Of a DNA stretch of 12,666 nucleotides, positions 150-204 are shown piece after piece. The notes under the pieces were generated by a model. It made no database searches. It had not been told where the DNA came from and saw only the letters and a program-made list of their open reading frames with translations. The position numbers and the translations under genes are program-made. The stretch comes from Escherichia coli (GTDB lineage Bacteria; Pseudomonadota; Gammaproteobacteria; Enterobacterales; Enterobacteriaceae), in NCBI RefSeq assembly GCF_003334315.1, contig NZ_QOWR01000083.1; one strand, written 5' to 3'. The first letter of the stretch is position 1; every line of letters starts with the position of its first letter.

Positions 150-204
150 TGGAGCACCTCAAAAACACCATCATACACTAAATCAGTAAGTTGGCATCAT
201 CACC
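1..204 (-). mobile_element. IS1 insertion sequence, left end (partial; element continues beyond the window start)
   Basis: Reverse complement of 1-204 reads GGTGATGATGCCAACTTACTGATTTAGTGTATGATGGTG...GTGGCTTCTGTTTCTATCAGCTGTCCC..., which matches the IS1 left terminal inverted repeat and the start of insA as I recall them. It differs at one base from the canonical IRL (GATGATG here, GATGCTG recalled). The gspD reading frame carries stops at 20-22, 50-52 and 62-64, so this segment is not gspD coding sequence. Confidence 0.85.

Follow-up and report, generated by a model that had tools for sequence, protein, structure and literature searches.

An IS1 left end carrying a circulating A8 allele within the gspD gene of Escherichia coli

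The two ends of the insertion sequence IS1 are formed by inverted repeats, given as GGTGATGCTGCCAACTTACTGA and GGTAATGACTCCAACTTATTGAT in a preprint (bioRxiv 10.1101/2024.03.01.582297), and both ends are bound by InsA and InsAB' (PMC12428005). The motif that these proteins carry has a described role as a zinc-finger domain (PMC12428005), while a weak promoter partially overlaps the left terminal inverted repeat (IRL) (PMC12428005) and IHF sites are located at both ends of the element (PMC11043490). When the repeats are compared, the canonical IRL (GGTGATGCTGCCAACTTACTGAT) differs from the IRR (GGTAATGACTCCAACTTATTGAT) at positions 4, 8, 9, 10 and 19, with the IRR carrying A at position 8. Positions 8-10 constitute an unconserved 3-bp spacer that separates the conserved tip, GGTRATG, from an inner block, CCAACTTAYTGAT, that is also conserved. 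In E. coli K-12 MG1655, the annotated IS1A, IS1B and IS1C copies each have an IRL that opens with GGTGATGCTGCC and therefore carry C at position 8 (C8).

The window, meaning the whole stretch of 12,666 nucleotides of E. coli DNA analysed here, contains one such left end, placed at its beginning and joined directly to gspD (Table 1). A search for the canonical IRL, allowing up to 3 mismatches, returned a single site in the window with 1 mismatch, and no site in 200 shuffles of the sequence. Over positions 181-210 the plus strand reads aatcagtaagttggcatcatcacc followed by catcct, the IS1 tip ending and gspD beginning between the two; set against strain HH194M, the plus strand is gttggcaGcatcacc in that strain and gttggcaTcatcacc in the window. 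The original prediction, that the terminal 23 bp depart from the canonical form at one base, is borne out, with 22 of 23 positions matching and a C to A change at position 8 (A8). The canonical form on which it relied is correct, since all three K-12 copies carry C8 and the preprint agrees. Of the three explanations then offered, an IS1 isoform, a real point change or an imprecise canonical form, the last can be dropped, and the first is favoured by the presence of the exact end in public genomes and plasmids. The window IRL is identical to that of annotated A8 copies of IS1 in other genomes, including ATCC 8739, ES6 and the plasmid pSGB23. It had also been held that an exact match to an existing form of IS1 would render the variant trivial, and such matches are found in public genomes.

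Table 1. Coordinates of the features at the IS1-gspD boundary of the window.
Feature	Position	Strand	Basis or remark
First 204 nt of a 768-nt IS1, truncated at the window edge	1-204	minus	0 differences from the ATCC 8739 and H10407 A8 copies; 100% identity to both ES6 copies
insA 5' part, codons 1-49, GTG start, with the CxxC...CxxC zinc-finger motif of InsA/InsAB'	3-149	minus	Translation
Promoter-like site over the IRL: -35-like ATGCCA (197-192), 16-nt spacer, -10 TATGAT (175-170)	170-197	minus	Scan, 9/12
IHF-consensus-like AATCAGTAAGTTG, compared with WATCAANNNNTTR	181-193	plus	Read from sequence; 8/9 specified positions; IS1 positions 12-24
IS1 left terminal inverted repeat (IRL), 23 bp, A8 allele, GGTGATGATGCCAACTTACTGAT	182-204	minus	22/23 match to canonical IRL
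Variant base, IS1 position 8	197	minus	A on the element strand, t on the plus strand; C in K-12 IS1A, IS1B and IS1C
gspD (secretin) 3' part, from nt 1323 of 1953, abutting the IS1 tip	205-835	plus	Sequence comparison

Judged from its sequence, the element belongs to IS1, a GGT-starting IRL of about 23 bp and an inward-reading insA zinc-finger N-terminus both being present. The window starts at element nt 204, and insB', the A6C frameshift site, the DDE region, the 768-bp length, the IRR and the target duplication lie beyond its edge; in A8 copies with an identical end elsewhere, insB', the frameshift site, the DDE region, the 768-bp length and the IRR are present. The beginning of the window inside IS1 has the appearance of a contig broken in a repeat. 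The insA DNA is identical to that of K-12 IS1A over codons 1-49, and position 8 is the sole difference between IS1A and window positions 1-204, with IS1B and IS1C differing additionally at position 127. The visible 204 nt would thus fit equally well an IS1A-type copy with its own C8A change, which favours a de novo reading, wherein C became A in this copy after an IS1A-type insertion into gspD, independently of any circulating allele. Such an origin is nonetheless highly unlikely, given that the same allele is found in hundreds of records and that strain ES6 harbours, within ca. 16 kb around this locus, two A8 copies that match the 204 nt of the window exactly.

The frequency of the allele was assessed with a 70-nt query ending at the IS1 tip. 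Of 9,314 IS1-bearing RefSeq complete E. coli records, 364 gave an exact full-length match as their best hit, while for 8,056 records the best match fell in the 95-99% band, to which one mismatch over 70 nt belongs, the result that C8 copies give. In PLSDB the exact A8 end was the best match in 97 among the 5,000 best-scoring plasmid matches, plasmids of Salmonella enterica and E. fergusonii included. When 100,044 species-representative genomes of GTDB were scanned for exact copies of the A8 23-mer, there were 0 occurrences, and a control scan of the same genomes with the canonical 23-mer returned 109 stretches. The absence is thereby genuine, though it says nothing about named isoforms. A8 is a minority form, since it is absent from the GTDB representatives while the canonical end occurs there, and the allele was encountered here on chromosomes of E. 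coli and on plasmids, the latter from E. coli, Salmonella enterica and E. fergusonii. The exact canonical IRL also turned up in assemblies of Streptomyces, Bacillus, Sporosarcina, Clostridia and Erysipelotrichia, on short contigs, where contaminating DNA of E. coli or of cloning vectors is a more likely source than genuine IS1. The A8 end is a naturally circulating form of a known element, present in hundreds of public records annotated as IS1; in a full-text search of the library no paper gave the A8 sequence, the canonical sequence alone appearing.

These counts also bear on whether the base is genuine. Repeat ends can be mis-consensused during assembly, many draft contigs stop within IS1, the window itself begins at IS1 nt 204, and its gspD-IS1 junction occurs in no RefSeq complete E. 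coli genome, all of which would accommodate a sequencing or assembly artefact concealing a true C. However, the base is positioned 8 nt from unique gspD sequence, so that gspD-anchored reads would be expected to cover it, and an error would need to recreate precisely the allele of 364 independent finished records and of ES6. An artefact is, on this footing, barely credible.

Twelve A8 copies were extracted, of which 11 are complete. A single 768-bp sequence recurs without any base change in ATCC 8739, ETEC H10407, ZJ3920, strain 1223 and both copies of ES6, and its product is named 'IS1-like element IS1B family transposase' (WP_095033700.1) by PGAP. An example of this element is NC_017633.1 1224327-1225094 (reverse complement), and its IS1B-like positions are 262C, 298C, 301C, 304T, 393A, 396C and 444G. 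Further A8 copies have IS1A-like or mosaic backbones, with varied combinations at positions 127, 262, 298-304, 393-396, 444 and 704. The occurrence of A8 on several backbones points to recombination or gene conversion between copies of IS1, or to recurrent mutation. Its presence across IS1B-like, IS1A-like and mosaic backbones, which could mean that the change recurs, would lend something to the de novo reading, but recombination or gene conversion explains this sharing equally. A 9-bp target-site duplication is the signature of IS1 transposition, and perfect 9-bp duplications surround 7 of the 11 complete A8 copies, each at a different locus. One copy is near yceJ, one in the gene of a substrate-binding protein beside yphG, one in the gene of a NapC/NirT cytochrome, one between gatB and gatC, one in nrfA, and one each in the gspA-gspC and chiA-tuf intergenic regions. 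With the chance probability of a 9-bp match at about 4e-6, these duplications indicate that elements with an A8 IRL have transposed repeatedly. The A8 copy of ATCC 8739 is situated immediately downstream of another IS1, with which it makes up a tandem pair (ca. 724-2268 of the extract), and no target duplication surrounds it; a truncated A8 copy adjoins IS26 on the plasmid pSGB23 of Salmonella.

Turning to the site of insertion, IS1 breaks gspD between nt 1322 and 1323 of its 1,953 nt, corresponding to the window junction 204/205. The remainder of the window contains gspE-F-G-H-I-J-K-L-M-O, bfr, bfd and chiA of a K-12-type gsp locus. The gspD frame runs on without a stop past the junction and into the IS1 tip, so that a mechanical and only putative ORF extends over 191-835 (214 aa), with a TTG start at 191, within the IRL. 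In ten other strains an IS1 with a C8 IRL lies in gspD 539 bp upstream of this point, oriented alike and with GAGAGCGAG duplicated, and two further strains contain IS1A elsewhere in the region. Together with the insertion in the window, these mark the gsp locus as a repeated target of IS1. Derivation of the window junction from the insertion 539 bp upstream, through an IS1-mediated adjacent deletion, was considered and is unsupported, those copies being C8 and gspD being intact in ES6.

A second lesion is present in the same operon. The gspK gene (start at 5430) lacks 80 bp relative to strain L6-21, with the deletion site at window positions 5527-5536 bounded by imperfect 10-bp direct repeats, GCCAGCTTCA and GCCAGCCTCA, and the resulting frameshift leads to a stop after 39 codons. 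Among 5,426 complete E. coli genomes this deletion is shared with the window by ES6 only, in which gspK is marked as frameshifted by PGAP. Two independent events, the IS1 insertion in gspD and the 80-bp loss from gspK, show that the gsp type II secretion operon of this strain is decaying.

ES6 is the nearest relative of the window, with only 3 of 12,285 bases differing over positions 205-12489. Its gspD is intact, and its two identical A8 copies bracket gsp-bfr-chiA, occupying the gspA-gspC and chiA-tuf intergenic regions (1042-1809 and 16286-17053 of the extracted ES6 region); a 9-bp duplication flanks each of them. In the window the chiA-tuf site is unoccupied, and a single CGTTCTGAC is found at 12481-12489. 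Because ES6 contains two A8 copies here, the lineage of the window carries A8 donors near this locus.

The most satisfactory explanation, and very probably the correct one, is that window positions 1-204 represent the left end of an ordinary IS1 in gspD which inherited a circulating and tolerated A8 allele. A8 would then have been brought into gspD by transposition of a resident A8 element, the donor copy being presumed, and would be no lesion of this particular copy but an allele of a minority IS1 population in E. coli and on enterobacterial plasmids. A simple insertion is the simplest account, which would place the other IS1 end and the target duplication beyond the window; CATCCTCGC would be expected again past the IRR, outside the window. 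An inversion-type intramolecular transposition from an ES6-type copy upstream of gspC is also conceivable; the ES6 copy at that position has the opposite orientation to the IS1 of the window, which fits such an event.

Why the allele may be tolerated is suggested by the architecture of the IRL itself. Position 8 falls within the stretch where the two ends naturally differ, and the same InsAB' transposase uses both ends, including an IRR bearing A8. As the IRR has A at this position, the variant raises the identity between IRL and IRR from 18/23 to 19/23. The promoter-like site found by the scan, whose -35-like hexamer opens with the variant base, is probably the weak IS1 promoter reported to overlap the IRL. 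The consensus base at the start of the hexamer is T, hence CTGCCA would score like ATGCCA, and one non-consensus base has been exchanged for another. With respect to IHF, for which WATCAANNNNTTR is the established consensus, the variant base is 4 bp outside the consensus-like sequence. A8 is thus likely to be neutral for binding and promoter strength; it is functionally tolerated, with a modest quantitative effect possible.

The original prediction had added that changes in a terminal repeat can affect transposase binding. This holds in general, while A8 itself is seen to be tolerated, given the 9-bp target duplications and the many loci at which it occurs. A stronger version would have A8 functionally significant, altering InsA/InsAB' binding or the strength of P(IRL) and thereby changing transposition frequency, for instance through an end of greater symmetry and activity; the clustering of A8 copies in the lineage of ES6 and the window would then be accounted for. 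In its favour, the base is located within the repeat bound by InsA/InsAB' and within a promoter-like site, the change makes the IRL resemble the IRR more, and three A8 insertions occur around one 21-kb locus in two related strains. On the other hand, the base belongs to the unconserved spacer between the conserved blocks of the repeat, the promoter match count is the same with A8 or C8, and A8 is rare (ca. 4% of IS1-bearing E. coli records and 0 species representatives), unlike what a strongly hyperactive end would produce; functional significance is therefore highly unlikely. A more elaborate form, in which the more IRR-like IRL would shift the balance between InsA repression and InsAB' action at this end, and an IS1 sub-lineage of altered, possibly higher, activity would be expanding in some E. 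coli lineages (ES6 and the window) and on IncF/IncHI plasmids, is decidedly improbable.

Position 8 of the IS1 IRL is seen to accept either C or A. The importance of the A8 finding is very little, although the allele could mark which IS1 sub-lineage gave rise to a given insertion.

In comparison with the known members of the family, the window element is matched most fully by the 768-bp A8 isoform of ATCC 8739, H10407, ZJ3920, 1223 and ES6, which is 100% identical over the 204 nt, A8 included, and whose own departures from K-12 IS1B are at positions 8, 127 and 704. IS1A of K-12 MG1655 (NC_000913.3, 19796-20563) is the same over nt 1-204, with the same insA N-terminus, IRL length and GGT tip, except that it has C8 where the window has A8. 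IS1B and IS1C of K-12 share the architecture of the inverted repeats but combine C8 with T127, in contrast to A8 with C127 in the window. Finally, the IS1 IRR itself resembles the variant IRL in carrying A8 and in being served by the same transposase, and differs from it at positions 4, 9, 10 and 19.
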